Counted from the first letter of the stretch, positions 923-46,741 are shown. The stretch: DNA of 64,000 nt from Patescibacteria group bacterium (GCA_013815345.1 JACDGK010000002.1:35399-99398), one strand, 5' to 3'. Made by a program: numbers and translations. Notes: generated from the letters alone by a model not told the origin.

Positions 923-2074
923 ATGAAAACGAAACATCAAATGCGACAAGTCGCAACTTTCGCTCTCGGACTCTTCTTTTTTGCCTCTCCGCTGTTCGCG
1001 AGCGCTGCAACCACGGCCGTAAAACCAGGGCCGTTTCCAGACGGAATGAGTACTTGGTATGGAAGCGTGTACAACACTTCTTCTCAACATGACGATAAAT
1101 TACAGGTTGGAGGCTGGGGAGATGAATACGATTCTCTCGTCCGCTTCAATCTAAGCGCTCTTCCTGTGACTGCCACACAAGCAGTTGTTTGGCTTTATGC
1201 CTATCCCCGAGGCGACGCATCTACCCCGGTAAACATTGAGTGGTACCGGAACACTACGCAATGGCACACTGGTTCGGTCAGCTGGAGCACAAAACCATCG
1301 GGAAATGATCTCGGGTATACCAATGCGCCAACGACAATTCCTGGCTGGTATGGTGTTGACTTCACCTCACTCTACAATTCATGGAGAAGCGGCTCTTCGC
1401 CTAACTATGGTCTTGCACTCAAGCCTCTTGCTAACAACAATCGCTTCGATATGTTCCGTGGTTCTGGCTATACGGCAGACACGACCCTAAGGCCGGAACT
1501 CGACGTAACATACAACACTTCAGGCACAGATAGCATTCCTCACTTCAAATGGCCTTTGTCATCGGTCGCGTACGCAAGTCGCTCGGTTACGCAAGCATTC
1601 GGAGCATTTCCTTGGGCTGGCGGTACCGAATGTCCTGTTGGCTATCAGAAATACCACAATGGTACGGACTACTCGACAGGCGGAGTCGGCGGAGCGACAG
1701 AATACGCTCCTGAAGACGGCATCGTGAAAGAAGTAACATTCGATAGTTCAGGTTGGGGTTACAACGTAGTGATGGAACACGTAACTCCTGGAGGCGGAAG
1801 CACATACACATCGGTCATCTGGCACATCTCGCCGAATTCTGATGTAACGGCTTCTAACCCTGGAGGCTTCATTCCAAAAGGCGCTCCTCTCGGCACAGTA
1901 GCTAGCCTCACCTACCCGAAAGTCTCGCACTTCCACTTCGGTATAAGAAGAGCTGCATATTCTTATCCGACATCGGGTGCGGGAGCGTTACCTCAGTCAA
2001 CATGCAGTAGCTATCTAGGCTATCCTGCGAGCTTCGTCGATCCTGAAAGCTCAAGCAACGTTATCTTCAACTAA
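923..2074 (+). CDS. secreted M23 (LytM-type) metallopeptidase with N-terminal DNRLRE-like domain
   Basis: Signal peptide (FALGLFFFASPLFASA); C-terminal M23 motifs HxxxD (YHNGTDYS) and HxH (SHFHFGI); N-terminal region ends in NNNRFDMFRG resembling the DNRLRE domain signature. Confidence 0.7.
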   Translation: MKTKHQMRQVATFALGLFFFASPLFASAATTAVKPGPFPDGMSTWYGSVYNTSSQHDDKLQVGGWGDEYDSLVRFNLSALPVTATQAVVWLYAYPRGDASTPVNIEWYRNTTQWHTGSVSWSTKPSGNDLGYTNAPTTIPGWYGVDFTSLYNSWRSGSSPNYGLALKPLANNNRFDMFRGSGYTADTTLRPELDVTYNTSGTDSIPHFKWPLSSVAYASRSVTQAFGAFPWAGGTECPVGYQKYHNGTDYSTGGVGGATEYAPEDGIVKEVTFDSSGWGYNVVMEHVTPGGGSTYTSVIWHISPNSDVTASNPGGFIPKGAPLGTVASLTYPKVSHFHFGIRRAAYSYPTSGAGALPQSTCSSYLGYPASFVDPESSSNVIFN

Positions 2075-3384: not shown

Positions 3385-4425
3385 TCAAGAATATATCGCA
3401 ACACCTGCTGCTTTGAAGAATACCTCTTCGGGCGTGAGTCCGCCATGACGTTTGCGCGGACGCGTGTTGATAAGGTGTTCAGCGCGGGCAAGCGCCTCGG
3501 TTGAGACCAATCGAAAGTCTGTCTTCTTTGGGAAGAACCGTCTGAGCAGTCCATTGGCGTTCTCGTTTGAGCCTCGCTCAAACGAGGAATATGGGTGGGC
3601 AAAATATACGAACACCCCAAGGGTTTCCTCAACCTCTTTCCACCGTATGTTCTCAGTACCGCGATCGCGGGTCAGAGTCTTGCGCACCTTTTGCGGAAGT
3701 ACGCTGAGCTTTTCAATGAGTGCGATGTCGCACTCAGCGGCAGTGCCGTCGTGTGTCTTTGCGAAGAACGTGACATCACTTTTGCGTTCAGTGGCACTCT
3801 TCACGCGTGCAGAAGACTGCCGCGACACGAGCGTGTCGTCTTTCCAGTCGCCAATACGAGAGCGGGACTCGACAACCCTCGGACGATCTTCGATTGAGGG
3901 GAGCGAAGCATGGCGAGCCAGTTTCCTGGCCTTGCGCATACCTTGTTTGGCGCGTACGACATGACGTCGTGCGAGCGTGCTGCGCAGGTCAGTTTCTCCA
4001 GGCAACACCGTCCCTCGTCCTTTTCGATGTACTCTGCGATATACCTCTTGGTATATCGCCTCAGTTGAGATGCGCATTGAAGAATCATTCGGATATTCGA
4101 TCAGCAGTCGCAGATGTACCTGCTCGGGAGACCAGCCGATTACGAGCTTCTCCTCGATGTACGCCCTGAGCGCTGGCGTGCGGCGCGTCTTCGCGGTGTT
4201 TCCACGCTTGTCGATGCGTTCACGTGCCTTTTCGTGTGCGCGCTCGGCTCGATATCGCCCCATGCCTTTGCGCGGTTTGCCATCAAGCTCGCGGGATATT
4301 GAGCCTTTGTTGCGACCCAATTCTTTCGCAATATCCGTCATTGACGTGCTGTCTGTGCACCACCTGACCTCAATCACGCTGCGTCCCCGCAGCGTGAAGG
4401 GGCTTCGCCCTTTGGTTTTTGCCAT
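3385..4425 (-). CDS. IS30 family DDE transposase
   Basis: 346 aa; N-terminal HTH (SMTDIAKELGRNKGSISREL); central IEDRP..VESRSRIGDWKDDTLV and DDE catalytic region typical of IS30 transposases; basic C-terminus. Confidence 0.85.
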   Translation of the reverse strand: MAKTKGRSPFTLRGRSVIEVRWCTDSTSMTDIAKELGRNKGSISRELDGKPRKGMGRYRAERAHEKARERIDKRGNTAKTRRTPALRAYIEEKLVIGWSPEQVHLRLLIEYPNDSSMRISTEAIYQEVYRRVHRKGRGTVLPGETDLRSTLARRHVVRAKQGMRKARKLARHASLPSIEDRPRVVESRSRIGDWKDDTLVSRQSSARVKSATERKSDVTFFAKTHDGTAAECDIALIEKLSVLPQKVRKTLTRDRGTENIRWKEVEETLGVFVYFAHPYSSFERGSNENANGLLRRFFPKKTDFRLVSTEALARAEHLINTRPRKRHGGLTPEEVFFKAAGVAIYS

Positions 4426-19202: not shown

Positions 19203-20114
19203 TCACTTACCTATCTCTACACCTTCTTCTGATTGGGGAACCAGTGAATTAAAGGCCACTGGTACGAAGAGAATTTTCGCTTCCCTGCCTAAAAGTATTG
19301 TTTCTCCGTCCAGAATAGCCGGTATTTCTTTTTCTGAAGAAACCGTAGCTTGTTTTACCTTTATGGAACTCACTCCGGGATCATCACGCCATTCTCCCAG
19401 AACAGCGCGTGAGGCGAGTCGCAGGACTTCTAGGGGGCCTTCAAGGTTAAAGATGACCACTTCAAGCGATCGCTCCTTATCCGCTAACACTGATGAAATA
19501 AGCGGACAGATAATACCAAGTGCCTCAGCGTTCTTTTTTTCGCCTGCATCCAACTCGTATGAAATATCTTTTCCAAAGGATTGCTGAAGCACCGAGACGC
19601 TTTGTTCGATAGCTTCACCCAGCGCTCCTTCTCGGACTGATTCACGAGCTTTGGCCCACAGGGATGGAGTGCCGAGTATTGCCGCAACGAAAAATCTTTT
19701 CTTTTCGATCTGACCGCAGGAAACCGATCTCAGAACGGGAACAGAAAGTATGGAGCGGAGAATGTCTTGCCACGAAACATCTCCATACAGAGCCTTAGGA
19801 AGCATGTTCATTGTCCCTCCTGGGAGAGGAATAAGAATAGGTCCCTTTTCGCTACATATTTCCGCGGCAGTTCGAATAGTGCCATCACCACCCAGAATAA
19901 TAAGAATATCTAGCTCACGATCGGTTGCCTGGGCAAACGCCTCATCCATTTCATTCGCTTCGCCGCACCATATGTGGGGAGTGATTATTCCCGCTTCTCG
20001 TAAAATCGTTTCCATTTCTTCACGCACATTCTCGTCGCAACTACCGCTTGAAGTGTTCAAGATGGCACCGACTTTTTTCAACCGCACATTGAAATTTTGC
20101 GCATCCCTAGTCAT
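19203..20114 (-). CDS. diacylglycerol/lipid kinase catalytic-domain protein (YegS/DgkA-like)
   Basis: DAGK_cat signature ILGGDGT (IILGGDGTIRTAAE); 303 aa. Confidence 0.75.
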   Translation of the reverse strand: MTRDAQNFNVRLKKVGAILNTSSGSCDENVREEMETILREAGIITPHIWCGEANEMDEAFAQATDRELDILIILGGDGTIRTAAEICSEKGPILIPLPGGTMNMLPKALYGDVSWQDILRSILSVPVLRSVSCGQIEKKRFFVAAILGTPSLWAKARESVREGALGEAIEQSVSVLQQSFGKDISYELDAGEKKNAEALGIICPLISSVLADKERSLEVVIFNLEGPLEVLRLASRAVLGEWRDDPGVSSIKVKQATVSSEKEIPAILDGETILLGREAKILFVPVAFNSLVPQSEEGVEIGK

Positions 20115-20186
20115 AGCTGCATAGATTGACGGTTGTAGATAAATTTCTTATCCTTTAATTTAGATTCTAGAGTAGGAAGGGAAAAA

Positions 20187-20459
20187 ATGACAGCCTCTCT
20201 GCAGAACACGCCGTTTGTTCGTCTTCCTAATGGGCTCGCCATAGTTGAAATTCTCTACTATTTGCCGGATAGACCTTTGCTTCTGGGACAGCCATTTACC
20301 TGGCAGACTCTCGATTATTTTCCCGAATTTCCTCGAGTGAGGATGTTCCTTGATTTTTGGGCAGCGAATATCGACGCGCCTATACGGGACATTTTACTCG
20401 CCCACCCCCTGCTGCCCAAGAAAACCGATATTCGGGAACTTCCCAAAGTTCTTCACTAA
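20187..20459 (+). CDS. usg: Usg-like protein
   Basis: AIVEILYYLPDRPLLLGQPFTWQTLDYFPEFPRVRMFLDFW matches Usg family (AEILYRMPDHPSLLQTFIWQDYDLAPEFP..FLDFW); RBS AGGAAGGG upstream. Confidence 0.6.
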   Translation: MTASLQNTPFVRLPNGLAIVEILYYLPDRPLLLGQPFTWQTLDYFPEFPRVRMFLDFWAANIDAPIRDILLAHPLLPKKTDIRELPKVLH

Positions 20460-20500
20460 ACCTCGAGTCAATCACTCTTTTCTGTAGGGTGATTTTTTAT

Positions 20501-21931
20501 TTATACTATTTCTTCTGCCCTCGAGCCTTTTGAATAGAGAGTCAGCGGTACTGATTGCCACGTGTCTATGATCTCAGTTACTACACGCCATTCAGCCATG
20601 ATTTCCTTCGTATTTGTAAAAAGGGTTTGATCGCCCTTGAGGCCATCATACAGAACTCGTTCATACGCATCATGCGACATCTCCATGTTCGTTTCGCGCG
20701 CATAGTTAAAAGAAAGCTCTTGCGGTTCAACGGACGAATGAAAGCCTGGACGTTTAAACCAGAATCTAAAACGTATTCCTTCATTTGGCTGTACGTCGAA
20801 GGTAAGAATATTTTGATGCCCTTCGGAATGTGATATCGCGCAATTGCATTTCGTAGTTCCTTTAAAATAAATGTGCAGAGATACACGAGCTTCGGCAACT
20901 GCTTTTCCGCTCTCAAGCTCGAAGGGAACTCCCTTCCACCGCTCATTATTTACCCCGAGAATGACTCGAAAGAAAGTTTCAGTCTGAGAATCAGGCCCAA
21001 CCTGAGATTCTTGAAGATATCCTTCGTATTGCCCTCGCACTACTCCCCCGCCCCTATCAGTCTTAAAGAGATGTGTTTGTTCAAGAACCGCAGCTCGTGC
21101 CGCACGAATAGTATCGGCACTCATATCCTTCGAAGGCTCCATAGCTAGAAGTGCGAGCATCTGCAGCATATGGTTCTGACCCACGTCTCGAAGCGCGCCT
21201 ATGCCGTCATAAAAACCGCCCCGTGTTCCCACCGTCTTACTTTCATGAAAGATGATGTGCACTCGCTCGATAGCTTTGTTATTCCAGAGCGATTCGAATA
21301 CATTGTTTGAAAATCGAAACGTGAGAATGTTTTGCACGGTTTCCTTCGCAAGATAATGATCGATACGGAATATCTGTGACTCGCCAAAAAGCTCCCCAAG
21401 CATTTCATCAAGTCGCTCAGCTTCCTCAATGTTTTTTCCAAAAGGTTTCTCTACCAGGATTCGTGTCCATCCGGTTGTATCCTGGGAACTTTTGGGAACA
21501 CACGGTATAGCAAGACCTGCTGTAGCGATATTTTGGAGAATGGTAGCGTAGAGCGAGGGCTGTGTTGCAAGATAAAAAAGCTTATTAGTACAGATTCCCT
21601 GTCGTTCATCTTCTTTCAACAATAGTTGGCCTAAATTTGTAAAATCCTCCTCGCTCTCGAGATTTCCCTGTACGTATCTAAAATGTTCCAGAAACTCTTC
21701 TACACTATTATTCTTATTGTTGATCGACAATCTGGGTGGGCTATTTTCAATCGCTTCGCGCGTAAGTACCCGAAACTCTTCATCCGTAAAAGGGCGCCGT
21801 GCGAATCCTATAATTAAAAAATCTTCAGGAAGAAGCCCTTCGCTATACAGGCGATAGAGTGACCGAGCGAGCTTCGTACGATAGAGGTCTCCCGTGACGC
21901 CGAAGATCGTTAAAATAAGGGGTTCTGTCAT
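20501..21931 (-). CDS. zwf: glucose-6-phosphate 1-dehydrogenase
   Basis: N-terminal FGVTGDL dinucleotide motif, RIDHYLAKE active-site motif, NHMLQMLALLAMEP. Confidence 0.9.
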   Translation of the reverse strand: MTEPLILTIFGVTGDLYRTKLARSLYRLYSEGLLPEDFLIIGFARRPFTDEEFRVLTREAIENSPPRLSINNKNNSVEEFLEHFRYVQGNLESEEDFTNLGQLLLKEDERQGICTNKLFYLATQPSLYATILQNIATAGLAIPCVPKSSQDTTGWTRILVEKPFGKNIEEAERLDEMLGELFGESQIFRIDHYLAKETVQNILTFRFSNNVFESLWNNKAIERVHIIFHESKTVGTRGGFYDGIGALRDVGQNHMLQMLALLAMEPSKDMSADTIRAARAAVLEQTHLFKTDRGGGVVRGQYEGYLQESQVGPDSQTETFFRVILGVNNERWKGVPFELESGKAVAEARVSLHIYFKGTTKCNCAISHSEGHQNILTFDVQPNEGIRFRFWFKRPGFHSSVEPQELSFNYARETNMEMSHDAYERVLYDGLKGDQTLFTNTKEIMAEWRVVTEIIDTWQSVPLTLYSKGSRAEEIV

Positions 21932-22318: not shown

Positions 22319-22355
22319 AAAGCCTCACGCCTAAAAACGTGAGGCCTTTCTTTTA
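22319..22355 (+). terminator. Rho-independent terminator
   Basis: aaagcctcacg-cctaaaaa-cgtgaggccttt followed by CTTTT. Confidence 0.5.
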
Positions 22356-22601
22356 AGCAGTATAGGGGCTTTGAATACCTGTTTCGGTTCCTGCAGTATC
22401 AATCTTTCCAAACTGAGTCTCATACTCTTTAACCTTTTCTGACCAGATCTCGACAATAGATTTCATGAGTTCGGGCGGTAACGCGAAACCGGAGATGTTT
22501 TGACCCGCTCGTAAAGCTATTACAAATTGATGTTTGCCGAAATTAATCTGTGCACCATTACAGAACAGCATTGGCAATGTATCGAAGTCAACGTTTTGCA
22601 T
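22353..22601 (-). CDS. DUF3467-like small protein
   Basis: C-terminal ...LPPELMKSIVEIWSEKVKEYETQFGKI resembles DUF3467 (...LALQDNIAKYEAQFGEI). Confidence 0.4.
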   Translation of the reverse strand: MQNVDFDTLPMLFCNGAQINFGKHQFVIALRAGQNISGFALPPELMKSIVEIWSEKVKEYETQFGKIDTAGTETGIQSPYTA

Positions 22602-22677: not shown

Positions 22678-24207
22678 CTATGCGAATCCTGGAAAATAGT
22701 CCTTTTTAACATGACGCTTGGGAATCTTTAGTCGTGAGAGAAGATCACTATACGCGGTAACCATAGCTTGTGGGCCGGAAAGGTAAAATAGGCAATCTTG
22801 ATAATCAGGAATCTCCTTAGCAATAAGCTGTTCGCTTATAACTGAGGGAATTCCTTCGACTTTTGAGTCTCCAAGTGGTTGATTCGTAAGTATTGGGAGT
22901 GTTACTAACCCAAGTTCCCTCTCCGCCTGAGTAATAAGAGGCATATAGGCAATGTCGCTCATAGTATTGTTTGAATACAATAATGTAATATCACGCCTAT
23001 CGTTGGTATCGAGAAGGTGCTGAAGCATACTTCGAAATGGAGTAATGCCGATACCTCCGGCAATAAATACCAGCTTCTTTTTTTTATCTGACGGTAGAAC
23101 AAAATCTCCTGCAAGCTGCGAAGCAACGAGAGTCTCGCCCATCTTCATTGAAAGTAGCGTTCTTTTAAAACTGCTCATTGGCTGATAAAACTTTACGCCG
23201 ACACGGAAATCAGAATCGGTTGGTGAAGAAGCAATAGTAAAGTAACGACGAATGCCCCGACTATCAGCGTTAGAATGCGCAAGTGTGTATTCAAGGTATT
23301 GTCCAGGGCTAAACGATAGTTTTCGATTTGAGCTAAATACGAATTCATAGGTGTTTTCAGCAATTTGGAGACGATCTTTAAGCGTAAGAAATAATTTCAC
23401 TTTAGGGCTCACCACATATACGAAAAGGTTTCCTGCAAGAAGTGCTAGCTCAGGCGTAAAGTAAAAAGAGCCGATATGTACTTCCGGTGCAAAAAGAAAT
23501 CCAACTATGATCGCGTAGTAGAAGCGGAGAAAGCGAGTCGATGGTGTGGTGAACGGCTCGGTAAGCATAACGGTTCCCAGAAATACTGCCGGTGTGTATA
23601 GGAGCGATGCTTGAACTATATGAAAAGCACCCGTACCTTCCCCACTGCTCAGTATCAGAATTGTCGCAACAAGTGCCACACCAAACACAATCACCATACC
23701 CACTCGTCGTATTTTATGAGCAATAAGAAATCCTCCTACAGCGACAAAAGGCAGCATCCACAACGTGCCGATCCACCACGTAGCTGATTGGTTGAGGAAA
23801 AGCGCGGTAACGGCTACTCCCAAGGCAGCGGGATTACACAAATGTTTCTGCCCGATAGCAAAGATATATTTTGACGCTATTGACCATGCAGCTGCCCATC
23901 CGGCGAGTGCGAGGAAATTAAAATCGTTAAATGCATGTGGTGGTGCAATAATGAGTACGAGGATAAGGGCAGTAATATAGGTTGATTCTGGATTGCTCGG
24001 TGCATCATAAAAATAAGCAAACGCTCTATTTACTATCCAAGCAATTGCAAAAATAATTACAACGGAATATCCGATATACAAAGGATCGTATGGTACGAGA
24101 TGGAAGAATCCGAGTATGCCGGCAACGAGTATAAGAAAAATAAGCTCGTAGAGTACGAGCCGGTACATGGTTATCTTGTTTAGAATGGCATCAAGCGGCC
24201 GCATCAT
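22678..24207 (-). CDS. polytopic membrane oxidoreductase with C-terminal FNR-like FAD/NAD(P)-binding domain (ferric-reductase/COG4097-like architecture)
   Basis: About 260-aa N-terminal domain with at least 6 TM helices; C-terminal FAD motif RRYFTIASSP (RxY[ST]) and NAD(P) motif FIAGGIGITP; no 2Fe-2S cysteine cluster and no obvious bis-heme His pairs. Confidence 0.7.
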   Translation of the reverse strand: MMRPLDAILNKITMYRLVLYELIFLILVAGILGFFHLVPYDPLYIGYSVVIIFAIAWIVNRAFAYFYDAPSNPESTYITALILVLIIAPPHAFNDFNFLALAGWAAAWSIASKYIFAIGQKHLCNPAALGVAVTALFLNQSATWWIGTLWMLPFVAVGGFLIAHKIRRVGMVIVFGVALVATILILSSGEGTGAFHIVQASLLYTPAVFLGTVMLTEPFTTPSTRFLRFYYAIIVGFLFAPEVHIGSFYFTPELALLAGNLFVYVVSPKVKLFLTLKDRLQIAENTYEFVFSSNRKLSFSPGQYLEYTLAHSNADSRGIRRYFTIASSPTDSDFRVGVKFYQPMSSFKRTLLSMKMGETLVASQLAGDFVLPSDKKKKLVFIAGGIGITPFRSMLQHLLDTNDRRDITLLYSNNTMSDIAYMPLITQAERELGLVTLPILTNQPLGDSKVEGIPSVISEQLIAKEIPDYQDCLFYLSGPQAMVTAYSDLLSRLKIPKRHVKKDYFPGFA

Positions 24208-24962
24208 ACCTTTGTATAGCTTTTCGTATACTTTTCCAAACCAGTGGTCATAGTAGCGATTCCGTTTGCATCGATCGCATATCCTTCAAAATCATCCTGG
24301 TGTTCTAAAAAATAAAGACCTTCCTTTTCCATTGCAAATGCCGCAGTTGCAAAACGATCCGCCTCATATACGTTCGGACCGATAACGGTAAGGCTTACAA
24401 AATCATTCGGAACCTGTGTAGGGAAAAGAGGATTATATACGTGATTCCCGCGAATATAATTTCCTGAAGTAGCAACTCCTTTTTCGTGCGGATAGAGCAC
24501 CTTCACGATCTCCGCATGATTGAAAGGATTGCGTATACCGATACTCCACTCTTCCCCTTCCCCATTTCTGCCACTTGTTTGAATATCACCGGCGATCTCG
24601 AGATAAAAATGAGCATGTCCCCCGTCTCGTAAAAGCTTCGCAGCGTTATTGATTGCCCAACCTTTTACTATGCCGGAAGGATCGAGCTGGCCACCAGGCG
24701 TATGAATATCGAAGTATCCTCCCGTTTCCTCTCGCGTTTGCTCCGCAAGTCTCAGTACCTCACTCATTTCATCGCTATAGGTAACTGACGCAACTACCCC
24801 TTTATTTATTTCTGAAATCTCACTCTCACTTTTGTACGTGCTAAATCGATCATCTATTGAAATAAAATAATTGAAAATTCTATCGATAATAACTTGAGTG
24901 TCTGTGCCATCAACAATCTCAAGTATTACTGGCATGCCCATGATGGAACGGGTGTGATGCAT
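24204..24962 (-). CDS. apbE: FAD:protein FMN transferase (ApbE family)
   Basis: ApbE motifs IMGMPVIL.. (MGT-type N-motif), DPSGIVKGWA, VATSGNYIRG; 252 aa; no signal peptide or lipobox; start overlaps stop of upstream FMN-binding gene. Confidence 0.8.
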   Translation of the reverse strand: MHHTRSIMGMPVILEIVDGTDTQVIIDRIFNYFISIDDRFSTYKSESEISEINKGVVASVTYSDEMSEVLRLAEQTREETGGYFDIHTPGGQLDPSGIVKGWAINNAAKLLRDGGHAHFYLEIAGDIQTSGRNGEGEEWSIGIRNPFNHAEIVKVLYPHEKGVATSGNYIRGNHVYNPLFPTQVPNDFVSLTVIGPNVYEADRFATAAFAMEKEGLYFLEHQDDFEGYAIDANGIATMTTGLEKYTKSYTKV

Positions 24963-24964
24963 GG

Positions 24965-25471
24965 CTATGCTTTTGCACGCGCAAGCGCTACGGCAAGGGA
25001 TTCTTCGAACGCAGTGCTTGAATCCGAAGCTCCCGAAACTCCGTTCACGTGAGCACTTTGTGCTTGTATTGCTTCAGAACGCAAGATTGGCATGGCTTGG
25101 CGATTGATAGAGATGGAAGTTCCTCGATCGTTTGGATATTGTAGGAATGTTACATCCGTTAACTTTCCGCCTGAGATAACCGCACTGACCTGAATGTTGC
25201 CATAGTACGCATCAGCAACACTACCGATATAGGAGCCATCCACATACTGTCCTATCGATTTTTTGGGAACACTAGGGGCGACGGGCTTGACGACAACCGG
25301 AGATCGAGTCGTGCTACTGCTCTCAGGAGAAGTTATTGGAGTTGGGGTTATTGAATTGTTCTGCGTAATGGTCGACGAAGTGTTCGCTGTAGCGGCAGTG
25401 GTCAAGTGTGTATAAAAAAAATACGCTCCAAATCCGAAAAGAAATATGCTTGAAATAAAGGTTTTTTTCAT
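24965..25471 (-). CDS. membrane-anchored FMN-binding domain protein (NqrC/RnfG-type flavinylation target)
   Basis: N-terminal TM/signal; FMN_bind pattern GSYIGSVADAYYGNIQVSAVISGGKLTDV...VNGVSGASDSSTAFEESLAVAL with [ST]GA[ST] flavinylation motif (SGAS). Confidence 0.75.
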   Translation of the reverse strand: MKKTFISSIFLFGFGAYFFYTHLTTAATANTSSTITQNNSITPTPITSPESSSTTRSPVVVKPVAPSVPKKSIGQYVDGSYIGSVADAYYGNIQVSAVISGGKLTDVTFLQYPNDRGTSISINRQAMPILRSEAIQAQSAHVNGVSGASDSSTAFEESLAVALARAKA

Positions 25472-25570
25472 GAAGAATACGCGGTAAACAAAGAAGACTA
25501 CGATTTATAGTTACTACGTCCCGAGATGAGTTATTGTTTCATCTAGCCTGTAAATATTCTGTAAGGTAGA

Positions 25571-25798
25571 TTAGTGCTTCACGATTGCGATAAGAGGTGC
25601 GAGCAGGGCTTGTATGATACTTACGATAAAATTCCACACTGCAAGTACGATTTGCCAGACAAAACCAAAGTTAGCTTGCGTAAGAGGTGCGTGGAAGAGA
25701 CTCTGAATAGAAATGCCAAAGAAAGAAAGAAACAACACAATAATAATCGTCCAGAAAATGATTTTTAGCATACGCGTAGAATGTTTTGATAATATCAC
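25571..25798 (-). CDS. small hypothetical membrane protein (2 TM)
   Basis: 75 aa, two hydrophobic helices; directly upstream of FMN-binding gene on the same strand. Confidence 0.4.
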   Translation of the reverse strand: MILSKHSTRMLKIIFWTIIIVLFLSFFGISIQSLFHAPLTQANFGFVWQIVLAVWNFIVSIIQALLAPLIAIVKH

Positions 25799-25807
25799 TA
25801 TGCAAAA

Positions 25808-27151
25808 CTAAAGGTATGATAACGGATTAAGATAGGCGTTTTTCGGAGACACGGGCATGGTAGCGTTGGCACATGGCGAAGTTGCTCCGCGGAATTGTTT
25901 TAAGGTCAGGATTTGCACACCGGCACTTGCATACACGCCGAAATGAAGGTGGGGTCCGGTCGCGTAGCCGGTCATGCCTGAATAACCAATAACCGTTCCG
26001 TTCGTGACTGCTTGCCCTTGGGTCGCCGAGATCTGTGAAAGATGGGCATACAGCGTATCGAGCCCGTTGGAATGTTTGATCATTACCCATTTTCCGAATG
26101 AAAAGCATCCCGGGACCAAATCCGTGTTCCCTGTTGCGAGTACCGTACCCGAAAGGGCTGCTTGTACCGGTGTGCCGATCGGTACACCGAAATCAACGCC
26201 ATTATGTCCCAAGCCGTTGTATACCGAAGCATTTGCGGTCGCAAATGCCGTATTGCCGAAGTATTGAGTAATACAATTCACATTCCCGAGCGCCCCCTGC
26301 TTACTCACGCAGTTTGCCATTATTGCGTCAGAGAATGGCCACGCGAGAATACCAGAACCCGCGTGAGGAATCTGCGAAGAAGAAACACCTTTCAAGCTGT
26401 TTTCCAATTGCGATAGCTCGCTTTGAAAGGCTGCCTCCTGTGCTTTCTTTTGGGCGATCAATTTTTGATAGCTACTCTCTTGTGAATTTGTTTGGGCAAG
26501 GAGCTGCTGCTTTGTCTTGGTCGTTGCGTCAATTTGTCCTTTTTGTGTCGTAAGGTCAGTGCTCAAACCCGTGAGCTGTCCTTTCGTTGTGGAAACGCTA
26601 GTCTGCTGGTCTGCCAACGCGTGTTCATCGCCCGCAAGCAGATTTGCATTGGTTGCAAGAGCCTCATTCAATTGGGCAATGGTGTTCGTATCTTTCCATG
26701 CCTCAGTAAGCGTTTCAGAAGAAACAACGGCAGCGATGATCGGAAGATTATCCGCAGTGGCGATCTGGCGAAGCGAAGCCGCCAAACTTTGTCGGTCTAG
26801 ATCTATCGCTTGTTGTTTGGTAGTAATCTGAGAGCCGAGTCGTTGAAGCTGAAGGTTCGCAGCAACAATCTGGCTTTGGGTAAGGGAGAGTTGCGCGGCT
26901 GTTTTTTGGCGGGTCAGGTCGAGCGATTTAATACTTGATTGCAGTGTTTGCTTTTGACCCCCCAAGGTAGTGATCTGCGTTTGATAGCCCGCAATTTCTT
27001 GTTGCAGTGCCGTTATCTGTTGGTTATGAGCAGTGATCTGTGCTTGAATATCCGCGCTCGAAGCAGTGTCTCCGAAAGAAGATCCAGGTGAAAGAAATAG
27101 CGCCGCGGCAGCTACCGTACCTATCAGAAACAAAGGAGCTATAAACCTCAT
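25808..27151 (-). CDS. M23 family metallopeptidase with N-terminal coiled-coil (EnvC/murein hydrolase activator-like)
   Basis: Signal peptide; long Q/L/T-rich coiled coil; C-terminal HNGVDF and GMTGYATGPHLHFGV M23 motifs. Confidence 0.8.
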   Translation of the reverse strand: MRFIAPLFLIGTVAAAALFLSPGSSFGDTASSADIQAQITAHNQQITALQQEIAGYQTQITTLGGQKQTLQSSIKSLDLTRQKTAAQLSLTQSQIVAANLQLQRLGSQITTKQQAIDLDRQSLAASLRQIATADNLPIIAAVVSSETLTEAWKDTNTIAQLNEALATNANLLAGDEHALADQQTSVSTTKGQLTGLSTDLTTQKGQIDATTKTKQQLLAQTNSQESSYQKLIAQKKAQEAAFQSELSQLENSLKGVSSSQIPHAGSGILAWPFSDAIMANCVSKQGALGNVNCITQYFGNTAFATANASVYNGLGHNGVDFGVPIGTPVQAALSGTVLATGNTDLVPGCFSFGKWVMIKHSNGLDTLYAHLSQISATQGQAVTNGTVIGYSGMTGYATGPHLHFGVYASAGVQILTLKQFRGATSPCANATMPVSPKNAYLNPLSYL

Positions 27152-40373: not shown

Positions 40374-41981
40374 CTACACCGCTGGCTGCATAAGAGGTAT
40401 TTCAGCAATAAAGCTTGAACCCTTTCCGGCGCCTTCTGATTCGGCTCGTATGGTTCCGTGATGCGCTTCTACGGTGCTTTTTGCGATATAGAGACCGTAT
40501 CCCGTACTGTGGACGTTTATCTTGGACGATTCCTTTCCTTGACCTCCCTCGGTGAAAAGACGTGCTTTATCTTCAGAAGTAATGCCAATACCTGTATCGG
40601 TGACTGAGAAAATAATTTTATCTACCGTCTTTGTAAGCGAAACGGCAATTGAGCCACTTGGCGTGTAATTTATTGAATTCTCAATAAGATTTTGAAATAC
40701 GTGATCCTCCAGCTTTTCTTTATCGCCAACGAGCATAAAAGATTCAGTGCTCTCTGCAGACGGAAAGTGTAGAGCAAGTCCTTTGGCTTCTGCTGAAGGC
40801 TTCAACTTTTCCACGATTTCGCTCACCACCACCCTACAGTCAAATGGCGCCATCTGGAAGCTCACGAGTCCTTTCTTGAGATTTGATGCTTGAAGAAGAT
40901 CCATAACCATACGGGAATCTTTGCGGCTTTGGGGGAGAAGTTGGGTCACGAGCTGTTTTGCAGGTTCAGGAAGTACGCCATAGTCTCCATCCACAAATCC
41001 AGAAAAGGCACCCATATACCGTGCCAAGAAGCCTTTGACTTCGTGGCTGATGAAGTGGATAAGACCTTCTTGTCGTTCATTTGTCTGCTCAAGCTCCTCG
41101 GCGAGTTTTTCAATTTTTTCGCGTTGTTCGACTTCTCGTACCATGGTACGGAGTAGCCAGACACCGGAAAGAAGAACCAATGCCAATTCGCCAACACGGT
41201 ACAGAATGAGAAGCAGGTTGTTCGAAAACAAAATGTCAAAAAATGTTGCGGTAGCAAGAAAGAAGGTTAAAAGTCCAAAAACAGCAACTTGAATATTAAA
41301 TAGACGATAATGCAGTATTGAGTACGCTGTTCCGACAATAAAAGGCAGTAGGAATAATCCACCAAGAGATACCAGTGTTGGAATATTTAAAAAGGCAGGG
41401 AAAATAAAATCAAAGGTTATTAAAAAAACAAAAGTCAATATAACTCCTGCAAGTACTGGCTCCATCCTCTTTCTATCAAGACCCATTGATTTGAAAAAAG
41501 TCCTTACTAATTTCCAAAGACCAATACTCACATATATAATTACCGTTATACCAAAAAGCGCGATCCCTGGTCCAGTCTTTGTTTCAACCGTTGGTAGTAC
41601 CTGCGTTATAGATTGGTATATGAAAGGCGTGAGGGTCAATAAAGAGATACCGCTTGTCCAGACGAGGAGAATAATGAATAGAAGATGCGGCATAACAGCC
41701 TTTCTGCTGGGAAATTGATACGCAAGCAAGAGGAATGAAAACGCATGCCATATGGCGAAGAAGAGCACGATTCGTATAAACCAAATGATAGAGAAGCCGG
41801 TACCCGCTCGTATGCTTGCAAAATTAGCTACACTCCAACAAATACTCGCAATAGTAAAGAAAAGATATGCGCGGGCCGTTGCGCTTTTCGGTTCAGAGAA
41901 ATATATAGAGCAGCCGAGCGTTCCTGCACCCGCGACTGCAATGCCTACCCACAACAAATCTAAATTTAATATCGATTCCAT
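40374..41981 (-). CDS. multi-pass membrane sensor histidine kinase (no cognate response regulator adjacent)
   Basis: At least 8 TM helices N-terminally, coiled-coil, H-box ISHEVKGF, HATPase G-boxes (DTGIGI, GYGLYIAKS). Confidence 0.8.
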   Translation of the reverse strand: MESILNLDLLWVGIAVAGAGTLGCSIYFSEPKSATARAYLFFTIASICWSVANFASIRAGTGFSIIWFIRIVLFFAIWHAFSFLLLAYQFPSRKAVMPHLLFIILLVWTSGISLLTLTPFIYQSITQVLPTVETKTGPGIALFGITVIIYVSIGLWKLVRTFFKSMGLDRKRMEPVLAGVILTFVFLITFDFIFPAFLNIPTLVSLGGLFLLPFIVGTAYSILHYRLFNIQVAVFGLLTFFLATATFFDILFSNNLLLILYRVGELALVLLSGVWLLRTMVREVEQREKIEKLAEELEQTNERQEGLIHFISHEVKGFLARYMGAFSGFVDGDYGVLPEPAKQLVTQLLPQSRKDSRMVMDLLQASNLKKGLVSFQMAPFDCRVVVSEIVEKLKPSAEAKGLALHFPSAESTESFMLVGDKEKLEDHVFQNLIENSINYTPSGSIAVSLTKTVDKIIFSVTDTGIGITSEDKARLFTEGGQGKESSKINVHSTGYGLYIAKSTVEAHHGTIRAESEGAGKGSSFIAEIPLMQPAV

Positions 41982-41982
41982 T

Positions 41983-43050
41983 TTAAGGTGAAATTTTTAC
42001 CAAATGATCCGAAAAAGCAAACTGATAGCGTCCTGAGGGCAACGGTCGTTTAAGAATAATGGCTTTTGCGGCATAGCAAAGTATGGCACCTCGCAAAAAC
42101 GAAGATTCAGCAAGTTGTGGAATGCCCACGAGAGTCTTTCCAAAAGCTTCGAACGATTCTAGGAGTCTCGTGTCAAGATATTCCACTCCCATAAAATCAC
42201 GAGCCAAAGCAACTTTTTCATGAGGAAGCAGGTGCATGCTGCTGGGCGACGCAATCGTTTCATACACGTGTGGCTTCATAAGATTGTTAAGAATAGGAAG
42301 TTCTGCATCTTCATCAAAACGCTCTACATCAAGCAACACACCTTCTGCATTGCCGGTAACCATGATTACAGGAATGCGATTCGATCGAGCTTCTTTCCGC
42401 AGAGCAATCTTAAGAGGCAGCGCATCCATTTCCTCCACTATGAGATCGACTTTTGGGTTTTGCAAAAAAAGTGAAAGGTTGTCGGGAGTCAGTCCCGCTT
42501 CATACAACTCTAGTTTGTAGTAAGGATCAATCTCGAGGATTTGTCGCGCGGTAAGAGTCGATTTATTAATGCCAAGGTCACACAAACCAGCCCTAAAACG
42601 ATTGAGGTTGGTGAGCGAGAGCGGATCAAAATCAGCGAGCTTCATGTCGGTCGAGCCTCCCTCCAGCGCTATGCACACCGCACCGGGATTTCCCACATTT
42701 AATCCAGCAAACGCAATGTTCGCTTTTCCGAACTGTTCCTGCTCACTCGTGGTAAGCAATTCACGATTACGATTGGTGCGCAATTCACGATATGCTTCAG
42801 GTCCTACTATCCGTACGATAGTGTTTCGCCAGGGATACTCGACAAAGAACTCCCCAGGCTTGTCGACAAGCTCTGTGGGAGTTTTTCCCACAGATCGCGG
42901 ATCGCGAATTTGTGCTAGTTCTGAAAGTTGTTCGTCATAGGTATCAATAACGCGAGCTCCTTCTTTTTTTTGGAAATTTGCGATTTCAATACTGTCCTCT
43001 GGATCGTGTGGATTCAAGAGACGAATGAGCTGCGATACAGGTTGTGGCAT
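41983..43050 (-). CDS. ThiF/MoeB/E1-like adenylyltransferase-family protein with about 100-aa N- and C-terminal extensions
   Basis: Rossmann Gly-loop FAGLNVGNPGAV, DFD...LTNLNRF (cf. ThiF D-x-D...SNLNRQ), ...VIMVTGN; no CxxC zinc motif, no rhodanese domain. Confidence 0.7.
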   Translation of the reverse strand: MPQPVSQLIRLLNPHDPEDSIEIANFQKKEGARVIDTYDEQLSELAQIRDPRSVGKTPTELVDKPGEFFVEYPWRNTIVRIVGPEAYRELRTNRNRELLTTSEQEQFGKANIAFAGLNVGNPGAVCIALEGGSTDMKLADFDPLSLTNLNRFRAGLCDLGINKSTLTARQILEIDPYYKLELYEAGLTPDNLSLFLQNPKVDLIVEEMDALPLKIALRKEARSNRIPVIMVTGNAEGVLLDVERFDEDAELPILNNLMKPHVYETIASPSSMHLLPHEKVALARDFMGVEYLDTRLLESFEAFGKTLVGIPQLAESSFLRGAILCYAAKAIILKRPLPSGRYQFAFSDHLVKISP

Positions 43051-43077
43051 AGGATCATTCTACGACATCGGATCGAA

Positions 43078-44118
43078 TTACGAGCGGCGAAGTTTGTCTT
43101 TAAGAGGGATACGGGGAGTCATCCAGTCAACTTCCCCATCAATTTTTCCTGCCGCAAAGAGAAATTGGAGCGGCGACTGAAGAGTAAAAGCCACAGTTGC
43201 CGCCGCGCGTGTATCTTCATATTCTACTGAGGCGACAAAAACTGAGTAGTCAAAACCTTGAGCACACAGGGTAAGGGCCGCATGCGATGCCTGAAAACCC
43301 ACTCCCAGCCAGCCAATAAAGGACTCTTCTGCCCCAAACCCAACGACTGCTTTTGAGCTGGCTATAGCGCCAAAATTAAGTTTTGAAAGCACTGGGCCCA
43401 TATTAAGGAAGCGGATCATCGTAGGTAGGATCCATGATAAGATCACTGGCTGATTTAACGAGTACCCCGGTAAACCGGTCCTCTTGCGAGAACCGGTTGG
43501 AGTAATCCAATAAGACATTTCATTCCTAAACATTGGTAAGGCATAGACGCGCAATATATTTTTTGCCGTCTGCTCAGCGACAATTTTAATTTTTTCTTTC
43601 TCGATGAGTGTGGCTACTTCAGGAGGTCGTAAATCATGAGGGGTCAACGAGGAAGGTTGTCGGAGTTGGATAAGTAAGTCTTCAGGAATCTCCACGTTTG
43701 GATTAAAAAGACCCCGTCGGTTTCGACGCGTAAAAATGGCTCGGATCAAAGATTCATAGGTTTCATCAATAGTGCCGGTCGATAGTTCAAATGTTATATC
43801 AGCAATATGATCGCCCGTTGCATCGATAGTAAAATGCGTCGACATTCCAAAAAACGCCGTGATGCTTGAAATGTGGTGGAGAAGAAATCCGATGCTTACA
43901 TATGAATATCGTCCGACAGAATCTGAGTAGGGCAACAAAATGGAGGTATCTCTATACACAGAGAGTCTTTCTTTGTGTATCTTAAAAAGCCACGGTTGAC
44001 TGTTATGAGTGGAGGGCGCTCTCGTTGCTGCATTCAAAACATACGTCATTTGTTCCTCAAGTACACCAGAAAAGGGAAAGTTGTCTTTAAAGGCCGCGAG
44101 CGTGATGGGGACAGACAT
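43078..44118 (-). CDS. nitroreductase-superfamily protein, tandem-domain (SagB-type dehydrogenase-like)
   Basis: RAPSTHNSQPW nitroreductase FMN-binding signature near N-terminus; 346 aa, consistent with two nitroreductase-fold halves. Confidence 0.65.
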   Translation of the reverse strand: MSVPITLAAFKDNFPFSGVLEEQMTYVLNAATRAPSTHNSQPWLFKIHKERLSVYRDTSILLPYSDSVGRYSYVSIGFLLHHISSITAFFGMSTHFTIDATGDHIADITFELSTGTIDETYESLIRAIFTRRNRRGLFNPNVEIPEDLLIQLRQPSSLTPHDLRPPEVATLIEKEKIKIVAEQTAKNILRVYALPMFRNEMSYWITPTGSRKRTGLPGYSLNQPVILSWILPTMIRFLNMGPVLSKLNFGAIASSKAVVGFGAEESFIGWLGVGFQASHAALTLCAQGFDYSVFVASVEYEDTRAAATVAFTLQSPLQFLFAAGKIDGEVDWMTPRIPLKDKLRRS

Positions 44119-44140
44119 GCCTCAAATCCTACCATGCACG

Positions 44141-45694
44141 CTACGCTGCGGGACGAATGACCCACGGTTGTTTTATTCCGGGCTTAAAGTACAGAGGGTC
44201 TTCATACTGCCAAAATACGAGACGGGGCTCGGCTCGCTTTCCCATAAAATCTGAGAGTTCATGGAATTCTGAGTTTTTCTCGCGAAGATTTTTAAGAATT
44301 TCGCTTTGGAGTTCTGAGACGAAAATCTTTCCCGCCTCCTTTTGAGGTTTTAATTCAATATTGATTTCAAGATATTGATCCTCGTTATGGTCATATTTCG
44401 TGGTTAAAGTGAGCTTTCCGGTGAGCGTAGTATGGAATCGTCTATCAAGTAAGACTTCTTTGATTGTTTCAGGATAAATCTGCAAGCCATAGAGCGTCGT
44501 TGCTAGATCAATGCGTTCATAGACATACACAAAGGGTAGTTCAAGCACTTGCTTTGAAATACCAGCAGTTCGGGCTTCTTTCATAATGTCGATCTTGTGG
44601 GTCTTACAGCGATCTACCATCTCTCTGAATGTGTACACGCCTCCATGATCCCCTATCGAGTAACGAGCAAGCGGTATAGAGCTATCACCGGTCACGAGTA
44701 TCTCCCCATTAGGTGCCTCAAATGAAACAGAATCGGGAATGTATTGAGCAAGCGTCGGTGTTTTTGTGGTTCCTCTGAAAAGATCCGTAAAAAGTTTCTC
44801 GTTATTCGTGGCGAGACGACGAATAAGAATGGAGAGCGGGGTCTCAAAAGCCATAGTGCCAATATCAGCGCTTCCATAAATGTTAATGGCATCCGTAAGA
44901 ATGTTTTTTATCCCCACCTTTTCAGCAACGTGATCGCGAAACCGTTCAGTAAAAGCTTCTGCAGCAAAAAGAAGCATCACCCGGTGCTTTTCGAATGAAA
45001 TGCCTTCCTCGATCGCCTCATCAATAACGTCCTTGAGAAAAGGCGGATACCCGGCCAAAATTATCTGATCATACTGCGGCGCAAGATCGCGCAAGGTCTT
45101 TAAGATTTCGCTCTTATTGATACCCGGTGTAAGTATGGAAATCGGGTATCCTCGACGACTCATGAGTTCAAATGCCTGATAGGTGATAAGTCCTCCTATC
45201 CATACTCCCATGCCAAAACACACGATAACCAGAGTCGAGGAATTTAGTTTAAGCGAACTTGTTCGATAAATAAGTTCATGTATCAATGAAGAGCGTTCAT
45301 CAACCTCATGTGATCGTGCAAAGTAGGTTGGCTTTCCTGTGGATCCTGAAGTGGAAGTAAGAATGTGGGGCGAAAGTAGAGAACCGCGCCAAAAAAGTTC
45401 ATTAAAATCTGACGGATGAAGATAATTTTTCTTCGAAATTGAAGGGACGGTGGAGAAGTCTTCGAGTGTACTAATATTCTTTCGTTTTATTCCCTGAGAC
45501 CGAAGGAATTTCTTGTAGGCCGGAACCTTTTCAGCCATACGTTCAAAAAGTCGAACGACGTGCTCTTGATTGATACGGGTCCATTCTGCACTGGTATGGC
45601 TTCGAAGGCGCTTAAAGAAAGCGCCTGCGCTCGGTGTTTCTATAGCGTTTGAGAATTTCTTCCGTATCGTCATTGTTACCGTCTTACTGTCCAT
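44141..45694 (-). CDS. ANL-superfamily adenylate-forming enzyme, PaaK/coenzyme F390 synthetase/CapK-like
   Basis: P-loop TSTSGSTGKPTYFARS (SSGTTGKP-type), A-domain core motifs, 517 aa. Confidence 0.7.
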   Translation of the reverse strand: MDSKTVTMTIRKKFSNAIETPSAGAFFKRLRSHTSAEWTRINQEHVVRLFERMAEKVPAYKKFLRSQGIKRKNISTLEDFSTVPSISKKNYLHPSDFNELFWRGSLLSPHILTSTSGSTGKPTYFARSHEVDERSSLIHELIYRTSSLKLNSSTLVIVCFGMGVWIGGLITYQAFELMSRRGYPISILTPGINKSEILKTLRDLAPQYDQIILAGYPPFLKDVIDEAIEEGISFEKHRVMLLFAAEAFTERFRDHVAEKVGIKNILTDAINIYGSADIGTMAFETPLSILIRRLATNNEKLFTDLFRGTTKTPTLAQYIPDSVSFEAPNGEILVTGDSSIPLARYSIGDHGGVYTFREMVDRCKTHKIDIMKEARTAGISKQVLELPFVYVYERIDLATTLYGLQIYPETIKEVLLDRRFHTTLTGKLTLTTKYDHNEDQYLEINIELKPQKEAGKIFVSELQSEILKNLREKNSEFHELSDFMGKRAEPRLVFWQYEDPLYFKPGIKQPWVIRPAA

Positions 45695-45718
45695 GGAATT
45701 TATTATAACACACGTAAT

Positions 45719-46741
45719 CTATTTTGGAAATAGGGTGGAGAATATATCCAAAACGAAGGGCATATCCTTCGGAGAAGGAACTCCCATGCGGAGAGTTGAA
45801 TGTAATAATTCCTTTGCTTCTGTAAATTTACTCATAGACTCTCCTATTGCTACTCTAACACCCTTCGCTCGTAATTCGTCCGCCAGAGTGTGCGCATTGG
45901 GTACTCGGATAAGAATGAAATTTGTTTCAGAGCTATATATCCTAATGCCGGAAAGACGCGAAAGCGCACTGCTAAAGTAATCCCGTTCTTGTATAACCAT
46001 TTGACGACGTACGCGAATTGATTCTGTTCGCCGCATTCCCTCCTCCGCTGCAAACATACTCATATGCGCAATGGGCCAAGGCAACATACGCTGCTCCATT
46101 TTTCTGATTATTTCGGGCGCGGCGATACAGTAGCCAACTCGAGCACCCGAAAGACCAAAACCTTTTGAGAGGGTGCGAATGATCACGAGATGAGGTGTTT
46201 GAAGTAAGAAAGGCAAAAGCGTCTTACCAGAAAATTCAAAATACGCTTCATCAGATACCAGCAGTACGTCACTTTCTTGAGCAGTGGTAACTATTCTTTC
46301 TATCGTCTCTTCAGGAATACTACAACCCAGAGGATTATTAGGTTGGCATAAAAAAAGCGCTTTTGCGGTGTCTCGCCGGAGGGCAGTAAGGGTATCAGCA
46401 AGAGGGAACACAAATGCGCCGTCGGTTTCGGTGTAATATACGGGATGTGTTACTCCTCCTACTCGATCCAGTATGGATTCGTATCCATAAAAGGTTGGTA
46501 CCGGAAGTACGGCTTCCCTTCCGTGGTTCACATAGAGCTCCGCAAGTGTTTGAATGGCAGCATCTGAGCCGGGAGTAAGGCAGAGTTGTTCGGGGATAAC
46601 CCCGCTATATTCGGCAATTTGTTTTTTGAGTTCATTGTAATTGGGATACGTTGAAAATTCGTTCTGTGTGTAGGTTTGGAATGCTTTACGAAGCTCCTCA
46701 TCCAGTAGCCAGTAACTCTCATTTTTATCCAACGGAATCAT
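45719..46741 (-). CDS. class I/II PLP-dependent aminotransferase, HisC-like (histidinol-phosphate aminotransferase/CobD family)
   Basis: N-terminal LDKNES (cf. LD.NENP), PLP-lysine motif TLSKGFGLSGARVGY. Confidence 0.75.
   Translation of the reverse strand: MIPLDKNESYWLLDEELRKAFQTYTQNEFSTYPNYNELKKQIAEYSGVIPEQLCLTPGSDAAIQTLAELYVNHGREAVLPVPTFYGYESILDRVGGVTHPVYYTETDGAFVFPLADTLTALRRDTAKALFLCQPNNPLGCSIPEETIERIVTTAQESDVLLVSDEAYFEFSGKTLLPFLLQTPHLVIIRTLSKGFGLSGARVGYCIAAPEIIRKMEQRMLPWPIAHMSMFAAEEGMRRTESIRVRRQMVIQERDYFSSALSRLSGIRIYSSETNFILIRVPNAHTLADELRAKGVRVAIGESMSKFTEAKELLHSTLRMGVPSPKDMPFVLDIFSTLFPK

Follow-up and report, generated by a model that had tools for sequence, protein, structure and literature searches.

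Gene clusters in which flavinylation genes accompany both a membrane domain that shows homology to NqrB/RnfD and an NqrF-like NAD-binding domain have been described as "NQR/RNF-like systems", reported mainly from Actinobacteria and from the Candidate Phyla Radiation (CPR) and counted in 127 genomes (Méheust et al. 2021, eLife, PMC8238504). The corresponding complex of Ktedonobacter racemifer, whose RnfD-like flavinylation site is not conserved, was later modelled, and it was proposed that the covalent flavin mononucleotide (FMN) carried by the NqrC-like subunit enters the flavin pocket of its RnfD-like partner; the AlphaFold-multimer model docks the FMN_bind domain at the outer pocket (Huang et al. 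2024, PMC10979944). Electron transfer driven by NAD(P)H to an extracytosolic FMN is a published hypothesis (PMC8238504, PMC10979944), and full-text literature searches revealed no later experimental work on the system, and on ApbE in CPR nothing beyond these two papers. Here a locus of this type is described in a 64,000-nucleotide stretch from a Patescibacteria group bacterium (GCA_013815345.1 JACDGK010000002.1:35399-99398), referred to below as the window. Its three genes probably encode an NQR/RNF-like, flavin-based module for transmembrane electron transfer, a 'half-Rnf'.

The three genes are tightly coupled on the minus strand and span positions 25471-22678 in the order FMN_bind, ApbE, fusion protein:

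24965..25471, minus strand: NqrC/RnfG-like FMN_bind subunit, 168 amino acids (aa), PF04205
25025..25045, minus strand: predicted flavinylation motif N-G-V-S-G-A-S, FMN_bind residues 143-149, kept among homologues
24204..24962, minus strand: ApbE-family FAD:protein FMN transferase, 252 aa, compact and leaderless, PF02424
22678..24207, minus strand: fusion protein, 509 aa, whole gene, membrane domain plus FAD/NAD(P)H domain
23398..24207, minus strand: NqrB/RnfD-like membrane domain, fusion residues 1-270, without flavinylation loop, from fold and profile matches
22678..23397, minus strand: cytoplasmic NqrF/FNR-like domain binding flavin adenine dinucleotide (FAD) and NAD(P)H, fusion residues 271-509 plus stop, PF00175

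A check of the open reading frames (ORFs) recovered these three and a small upstream one, four minus-strand ORFs in all, at the coordinates given in a preliminary description made from the sequence alone. The FMN_bind stop is separated from the ApbE ATG by 2 nt, and the ApbE stop shares 4 nt (ATGA) with the start of the fusion protein, in good agreement with the translational coupling claimed in that description.

The system was searched for in species-representative genomes by a synteny scan, which gave at least 442 loci; gene order was examined in the best 80 of them. The order FMN_bind-ApbE-RnfD/FNR recurred in about 50 of the 80, in lineages comprising many Patescibacteria classes, Chloroflexota (Dictyobacter, Ktedonospora), Alphaproteobacteria (Mesorhizobium, Kaistia) and Spirochaetota. 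Since this synteny is conserved across phyla and the Pfam E-values given below are low, the triad is not due to chance. More than 7,700 homologues of the fusion protein were found, the best matches coming almost entirely from Parcubacteria/Paceibacteria-type CPR, and the membrane-domain profile matched 589 clusters at 50% identity (E ≤ 1e-30) among 1.84 billion representatives. The module had been regarded as unusual for such an organism; it is instead widespread in Patescibacteria.

PF03116 (NQR2_RnfD_RnfE) is present in many homologues of the fusion protein at 52-69% identity, which in some sources go by the name of RnfD or NqrB. When the full-length profile or model was searched against the PDB, matches to the FNR domain dominated, and an alignment and a model of the membrane domain only were used instead. 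A profile of 21 membrane domains (alignment A2) gave as its sole PDB match in hmmsearch the RnfD of Azotobacter vinelandii (8ahx_D, E = 6.6e-4, residues 154-260). When compared with E. coli RsxD by local hhalign alignment, the profile scored E = 4.6e-6 with 86.5% probability; the global alignment was unreliable in the N-terminal half, and residues were matched through the local alignment and manually through motifs (GQxxFNPA, then WW). When the domain was modelled with AlphaFold2 (pLDDT 82.6, pTM 0.81), all of the model's top 15 Foldseek PDB matches were RnfD or NqrB structures, from four organisms (prob 1.00, TMq 0.55-0.68), followed by urea transporters at far weaker E-values. Judged by these profile matches and by the modelled fold, the membrane domain is an NqrB/RnfD homologue, a class to which the preliminary description had not assigned it. 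It has about 10 helices, more than the 6-8 first proposed, although its fusion to an FNR-like domain had been recognized correctly. Family-wide, Lys and Arg amount to 8.4 on the predicted inner loops versus 1.1 on the outer loops, and by this criterion the two termini and the FNR domain lie in the cytoplasm.

RsxD exceeds the domain by about 80 aa, and its periplasmic loop with the flavinylated threonine (T187, DGISQAT) has no counterpart here. NPAA and WW are spaced 15 residues apart in 76 of the 79 family members, and the canonical motif [DN]xx[ST]GA[ST] was found in none of the 79 membrane domains. The sequence QSAT at 140-143 was considered as a relic of the flavinylation site and was rejected, as position 143 is Ser or Thr in only 56 of the 79 and the canonical motif is absent. 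The covalent-FMN loop ([ST]GAT-type) of the D/B subunit of canonical Rnf and Na+-NQR is therefore lacking. This is the situation described by Huang et al., in which the NqrB/RnfD flavinylation threonine is lost and the NqrC/RnfG-like site is kept.

Five polar or charged intramembrane residues, K113, H122, N125, E217 and N260, are invariant. Together with a fold shared with the Nqr/Rnf subunit implicated in ion translocation, they might speak for a cation path retained in the RnfD/NqrB-like domain, with electron flow between the inner and outer flavins coupled to a movement of Na+ or H+; such coupling would be additional to electron transfer and compatible with it. It is nevertheless quite unlikely, given that the NqrD/E or RnfA/E partners are absent from the window, that mapping of the residues onto known Na+ sites was not achieved, and that the domain is shorter than RnfD.

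The C-terminal part of the fusion protein matched PF00175 (NAD_binding_1) with E = 3.2e-13 at residues 381-487, with weaker matches to PF00970 (FAD_binding_6) and PF08030 (NAD_binding_6) within residues 275-487. NCBIfam gave only sub-threshold similarities to the FNR family, NqrF among them. The best PDB sequence matches of the domain were the FAD domains of NqrF (E = 3e-17), and Foldseek retrieved FNR, flavohaemoglobin and NqrF folds. The motifs RRYFT(IASSP) and GGIGITP, both pointed out in the preliminary description, are invariant in the family, as is a C-terminal D-x-F-P-G-F. Only residues ~350-507 match NqrF, at its positions 248-408, and the NqrF-type 2Fe-2S domain is missing.

The NAD_binding_6 match (E = 1.3e-4, weak) and the presence of the Streptococcus pneumoniae NOX among the structural matches of the FNR domain would be compatible with a ferric reductase of the NOX/FRE or siderophore-interacting type lying beside ApbE and FMN_bind by chance. 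This explanation is hardly credible: no Pfam match to the six-helix bis-haem domain (Ferric_reduct, PF01794; NOX/FRE, COG4097-type) was obtained, bis-haem His pairs are absent, the fold is that of RnfD/NqrB, and the synteny with ApbE and FMN_bind extends over at least four phyla. The suggested COG4097/FRE assignment can consequently be dropped, whereas the remark that neither NqrF-type Fe-S cysteines nor bis-haem histidines are present was accurate. The conserved order in about 50 loci ties the membrane reductase to ApbE clusters, contrary to the unrelated ferric reductase that the preliminary description had named as a refutation.

Because an NqrB/RnfD-like membrane domain, recognized through homologues, profiles and structure and not through a PF03116 match of its own, is joined on the same chain to an NqrF-like NAD-binding domain (PF00175), and because coupled FMN_bind and ApbE genes lie immediately upstream, the locus is an NQR/RNF-like system. 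The triad is a further member of a described but biochemically uncharacterised system, proposed in 2021; its architecture shows no essential difference, and CPR are one of the two main host groups. Copies such as this one were probably under-counted in 2021, as they miss the PF03116 criterion.

The resemblance to Rnf (RnfABCDGE) and Na+-NQR (NqrABCDEF) comprises the RnfD/NqrB fold, a covalent-FMN subunit of the RnfG/NqrC type, an NqrF-type FAD/NADH domain and ApbE-dependent maturation. The system differs in having two subunits, without RnfA/E (NqrD/E), RnfB, RnfC/NqrA or Fe-S domains; its D-like subunit is not flavinylated and is some 80 aa shorter, and its electron flow is predicted to run one way, outward, where theirs is semicircular. 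As homologues of RnfD/NqrB, RnfG/NqrC and NqrF are all represented, the locus could in principle be part of a canonical complex, with the genes for the remaining subunits lying elsewhere in the genome. This is very improbable, since the D-like and F-like parts are fused in chains of ~500 aa throughout the family, the 2Fe-2S domain is missing and the RnfD flavinylation loop is deleted, and the literature treats the system as a separate one of two subunits (PMC10979944). In addition, none of RnfA/E (NqrD/E), RnfB and RnfC/NqrA is encoded within the window or beside the 80 related loci. Rnf, Nqr, quinone, cytochrome or other respiratory genes besides the triad were not found in the window either, as had been noticed before.

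The FMN_bind protein matched PF04205 with E = 1.1e-5 (26.5 bits, cut-off 22). It consists of an N-terminal MKK followed by a hydrophobic anchor, a Ser/Thr/Pro-rich linker and a C-terminal FMN-binding domain. Its NGVSGAS sequence aligns with the flavinylation motif F-D-Q-F-T-G-A-T of E. coli RsxG, and Ser149 is the predicted FMN acceptor residue. The motif, in the form D-x-[IV]-[ST]-G-A-[ST], is kept about 25 residues before the C-terminus in 55 of 56 syntenic homologues. With PF04205 and a motif of the [DN]xx[ST]GA[ST] type, the protein belongs to the NqrC/RnfG-type substrate class, its location being deduced. The SGAS motif and the membrane anchor reported in the preliminary description were thus recovered, and the motif withstood alignment.

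The location of the FMN_bind domain was assessed from the N-terminal anchor and the charge distribution only. Positive charge lies on the N side of the anchor, which is followed by acidic or Ser/Thr/Pro-rich linkers, and the topology is accordingly predicted as N-in/C-out with an extracytoplasmic domain; the preliminary description had proposed such a prediction as a check. The anchor pattern MKK..LS.FVI..F..Y...Q is common to the homologues of CPR, Chloroflexota and Mesorhizobium, and this conservation suggests that the helix is retained and packs against a partner and is not cleaved off as a signal. The spirochaete homologues begin with signal-peptide-like sequences.

The ApbE protein was confirmed as such by its match to PF02424 (E = 5.9e-38). 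It has in common with E. coli ApbE/Ftp the motifs MG(M/T), DPSG..KG, GGD/AGD, TSG.Y, His174 and EAD202...T206, and belongs to the transferase class, with His174, Asp202, Thr206, DPSG..KG, GGD and TSG invariant relative to the E. coli enzyme. ApbE enzymes are typically lipoproteins that the cell secretes. Relative to E. coli ApbE/Ftp, the protein lacks the 34-aa lipoprotein leader and an internal segment of ~51 aa; its N-terminus is MHHTRSIMGMPV, without any hydrophobic segment or the N-terminal Sec/lipoprotein signal of a typical extracytosolic ApbE. The ORF starts at the first start codon after an in-frame stop, so that an upstream start is impossible. A mis-called start or a frameshift fusion to FMN_bind could be ruled out by this stop, by the spacing and frame between the two genes, which vary among loci, and by independent gene calls, which put the cluster-linked ApbE at ~248 aa.

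All of the 120 best ApbE homologues are 238-286 aa long, and two of these 120, picked at random, again adjoin RnfD/FNR and FMN_bind genes. In monoderm and diderm lineages alike each cluster-linked ApbE examined begins at the first beta-strand (MKxTRxxMGMP...). A leader is consistently missing throughout the system, and its absence is no quirk of this genome. The absence of a signal peptide and lipobox that had been remarked on for the window copy holds for every cluster-linked ApbE examined. The papers found on the NQR/RNF-like system make no mention of an ApbE that is leaderless and internally shortened. The 2021 survey used a signal-peptide filter and called flavinylation "strikingly underrepresented" in CPR (PMC8238504).

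The following route may be proposed, and a conduit leading from NAD(P)H to a flavoprotein outside the cytoplasm, as already envisaged in the preliminary description, fits both the domain evidence and the published model (PMC8238504, PMC10979944), function being deduced. NAD(P)H would reduce the FAD of the cytoplasmic FNR domain. The electrons would then cross the membrane by way of one or two flavins bound non-covalently in the RnfD-like domain, at sites taken by analogy to match the riboflavin and FMN sites of NqrB/RnfD. They would arrive at the Ser149-linked FMN of the outer subunit, and this FMN would pass them to an extracytoplasmic acceptor. Such a route would correspond to the RnfG-RnfD-RnfC limb of Rnf operating backwards, the FNR domain standing in for RnfC. 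Attachment of FMN would take place in the cytoplasm, while the small C-terminal domain is being exported or beforehand; of all the steps this is the least certain. In a bacterium without a respiratory chain the module could also serve as an outlet for NAD(P)H, regenerating NAD(P)+.

Several points weigh against this interpretation. The intermediate cofactors of the membrane domain are assumed by analogy, and fusion residues 1-278, when searched alone, matched no Pfam family, PF03116 included, even at E ≤ 10. Biochemical data for any member of the system were not found in the literature searches. No acceptor gene is conserved beside the module in the related loci, and its neighbours in the window (peptidoglycan hydrolase, GltX, glucose-6-phosphate dehydrogenase) are uninformative on the acceptor. 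Finally, a signal peptide, lipobox or transmembrane segment is absent from ApbE in all of the ~60 clusters examined, and in Salmonella the periplasmic ApbE is not replaceable by a cytosolic one (PMC12052999); for these reasons the way in which an external domain becomes flavinylated remains puzzling.

Three explanations of the puzzle were considered. That the ApbE has no leader suggests FMN attachment in the cytoplasm, the compartment with available FAD; this explanation, in which flavinylation precedes or accompanies the export of the small domain, is favoured with low confidence. The FMN_bind domain might instead work at the inner face of the membrane, against which the polarity of the anchor speaks, or ApbE might be exported by an unrecognised route. 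That the system possesses its own cytoplasmic, cut-down ApbE, with FMN_bind flavinylated inside and then translocated in the flavin-loaded state or, alternatively, working at the inner membrane face, is put forward as a tentative and somewhat doubtful proposal. If true, ApbE flavinylation of envelope proteins would no longer be an exclusively extracytosolic event, and surveys filtered on signal peptides would greatly under-count flavinylation in CPR. The puzzle could be addressed in cultivable carriers, e.g. Mesorhizobium, Ktedonobacter/Dictyobacter or Agreia.

A cytoplasmic FMN_bind domain would lead to a different electron path, in which the covalent FMN, attached inside the cell, relays electrons from the FNR to the RnfD-like domain, and the latter alone carries them outward or to a membrane acceptor. 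The compact, leaderless ApbE of every cluster would suit this path, including those of the diderm Alphaproteobacteria, where such a protein cannot reach the periplasm, and cytoplasmic ApbE enzymes with cytoplasmic targets do exist (PMC12052999). It is nonetheless unlikely in view of the conserved MKK and hydrophobic anchor, the charge and linkers predicting N-in/C-out, the docking at the outer flavin pocket in the AlphaFold-multimer model (PMC10979944), and the signal-peptide-like starts in spirochaetes.

The second ApbE of Klebsiella pneumoniae, which serves a soluble fumarate reductase, likewise has no signal peptide (PMC12052999). Cytoplasmic enzymes of this kind modify cytoplasmic targets, whereas the only motif-bearing target in the locus cluster is predicted to be extracytoplasmic; the two are likened by the absence of a signal peptide, not by sequence relatedness. 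A further comparison is offered by the flavin-based extracellular electron transfer of Listeria (Ndh2, EetA/B, PplA, FmnB, DmkA/B), which shares with the route favoured here, towards an external FMN, a cytoplasmic NADH donor, a surface FMN_bind protein flavinylated by ApbE and extracellular acceptors. It differs in using a quinone pool and unrelated membrane proteins, while the locus system has no quinone step and a leaderless ApbE. The Listeria ApbE (FmnB) is described as a secreted lipoprotein whose FAD is supplied by an ECF exporter (PMC9973259).

In related loci, histidine kinase/response regulator pairs recur as neighbours in 16-19 cases and HlyD-ABC-ABC exporters in about 10; NRAMP, VIT1, P-type ATPases, MsrA/B and peroxiredoxin (AhpC)/thioredoxin-like genes occur in a few loci each. 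In two close relatives (67-68% identity; L084 3348-4648 and L086 3396-4693) and in a soil metagenome-assembled genome (L089 728-3446), a gene for an ECF sigma factor and one for a ~240-aa protein lie directly upstream of FMN_bind. The metal transporters, the Msr and AhpC/thioredoxin-like genes and the ECF sigma/two-component regulators point weakly to a reduction of Fe or Mn for uptake, or to redox repair and oxidative-stress defence of the envelope.

To our knowledge, CPR/Patescibacteria lack respiratory chains. A widespread, flavin-only conduit of two subunits would be a plausible answer to the question of how they get rid of reducing equivalents or cope with oxidants and metals at the surface. 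What is new here is that the system is much commoner in CPR than the published count suggests, as copies escape a Pfam-based definition; that its ApbE is always of the compact, leaderless form; and that the recurring neighbours confine the candidate roles to metal reduction or redox defence of the envelope.

The ~240-aa protein upstream of FMN_bind in some relatives has no Pfam family and is possibly an anti-sigma factor. In the soil genome (L089) an NRAMP gene precedes the pair, and the window copy carries neither the sigma factor nor the ~240-aa protein upstream. Loci L031, L041, L045, L052, L056, L059 and L078 come from metagenome-assembled genomes that bear the label "uncultured Gammaproteobacteria". 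Wherever the flanking sequence suffices, the same compact module is seen, and the taxonomic assignment of these bins may not be reliable.

A more distant second subgroup, to which Saccharibacteria, Actinomycetota and others belong, differs in its FMN-binding partner and in having an ApbE of ~290 aa. At L041, L044, L052, L053, L057, L059, L067, L073 and L076 the partner, of ~175 aa, is encoded just upstream of the RnfD/FNR gene; that of L044 (417-941) contains a flavinylation-like motif, DDVITGAS, earlier in the chain. The ApbE of this subgroup starts FEAIGTxW and is likewise leaderless.

Three further features flank the triad in the window:

25571..25798, minus strand: small ORF of 75 aa (66 aa as called) with two hydrophobic segments (2-TM)
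22353..22601, minus strand: DUF3467-like ORF, 82 aa, downstream, PF11950 with E = 2.3e-5, slightly under the cut-off
22322..22345, no strand: GC-rich, terminator-like hairpin between convergent genes, 8 pairs, 6 of them GC

The small ORF, separated from FMN_bind by a 99-nt gap, exists as first described (25798-25571). It has no Pfam family and does not occur beside the triad in the 80 loci or in the 67-68% identical relatives, and it is probably not part of the module, to which it had been assigned. DUF3467 occurs near the module in only one other of the 80 loci, 3 kb away. The DUF3467-like ORF is possibly co-transcribed with the triad, and the hairpin that follows it is probably the end of the transcription unit; a promoter scan at the locus gave no signal above that of shuffled sequence. 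As functional partners of the module, the small ORF and DUF3467 were rejected together with the glucose-6-phosphate dehydrogenase (G6PD), NAD-kinase-like and M23 genes, none being a conserved neighbour.

Otherwise the window carries the housekeeping genes typical of CPR, for ribosomal proteins, tRNA synthetases, MurG/FtsW/MraY, DnaK/DnaJ, G6PD and M23 peptidases. Just downstream of the module (19203-21931 and 20187-20459) are encoded G6PD, an Usg-like small protein and a DAGK_cat/NAD-kinase-like protein; these genes might provide for a local supply of NADPH, and are not conserved beside the module elsewhere. Secreted M23 peptidases are encoded at 923-2074 (plus strand) and 25808-27151 (minus strand), one with a CBM96 carbohydrate-binding module and the other with a Gln/Thr/Ala-rich N-terminal region of ~300 aa that resembles a coiled coil, by eye only. 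A 346-aa protein at 3385-4425 (minus strand), whose sole match is HTH_38, a helix-turn-helix typical of IS30-type transposases, is flanked by short unassigned ORFs and may be the remnant of a mobile element. At 40374-46741 (minus strand), a co-oriented run comprises genes for a 7TM-receptor histidine kinase (HisKA_7TM + HATPase_c), a ThiF-family protein, a nitroreductase-like protein (TM1586_NiRdase), a 517-aa protein without a Pfam match and a class I/II aminotransferase; the pairing of ThiF with the nitroreductase-like gene resembles that of peptide or cofactor-modification clusters.

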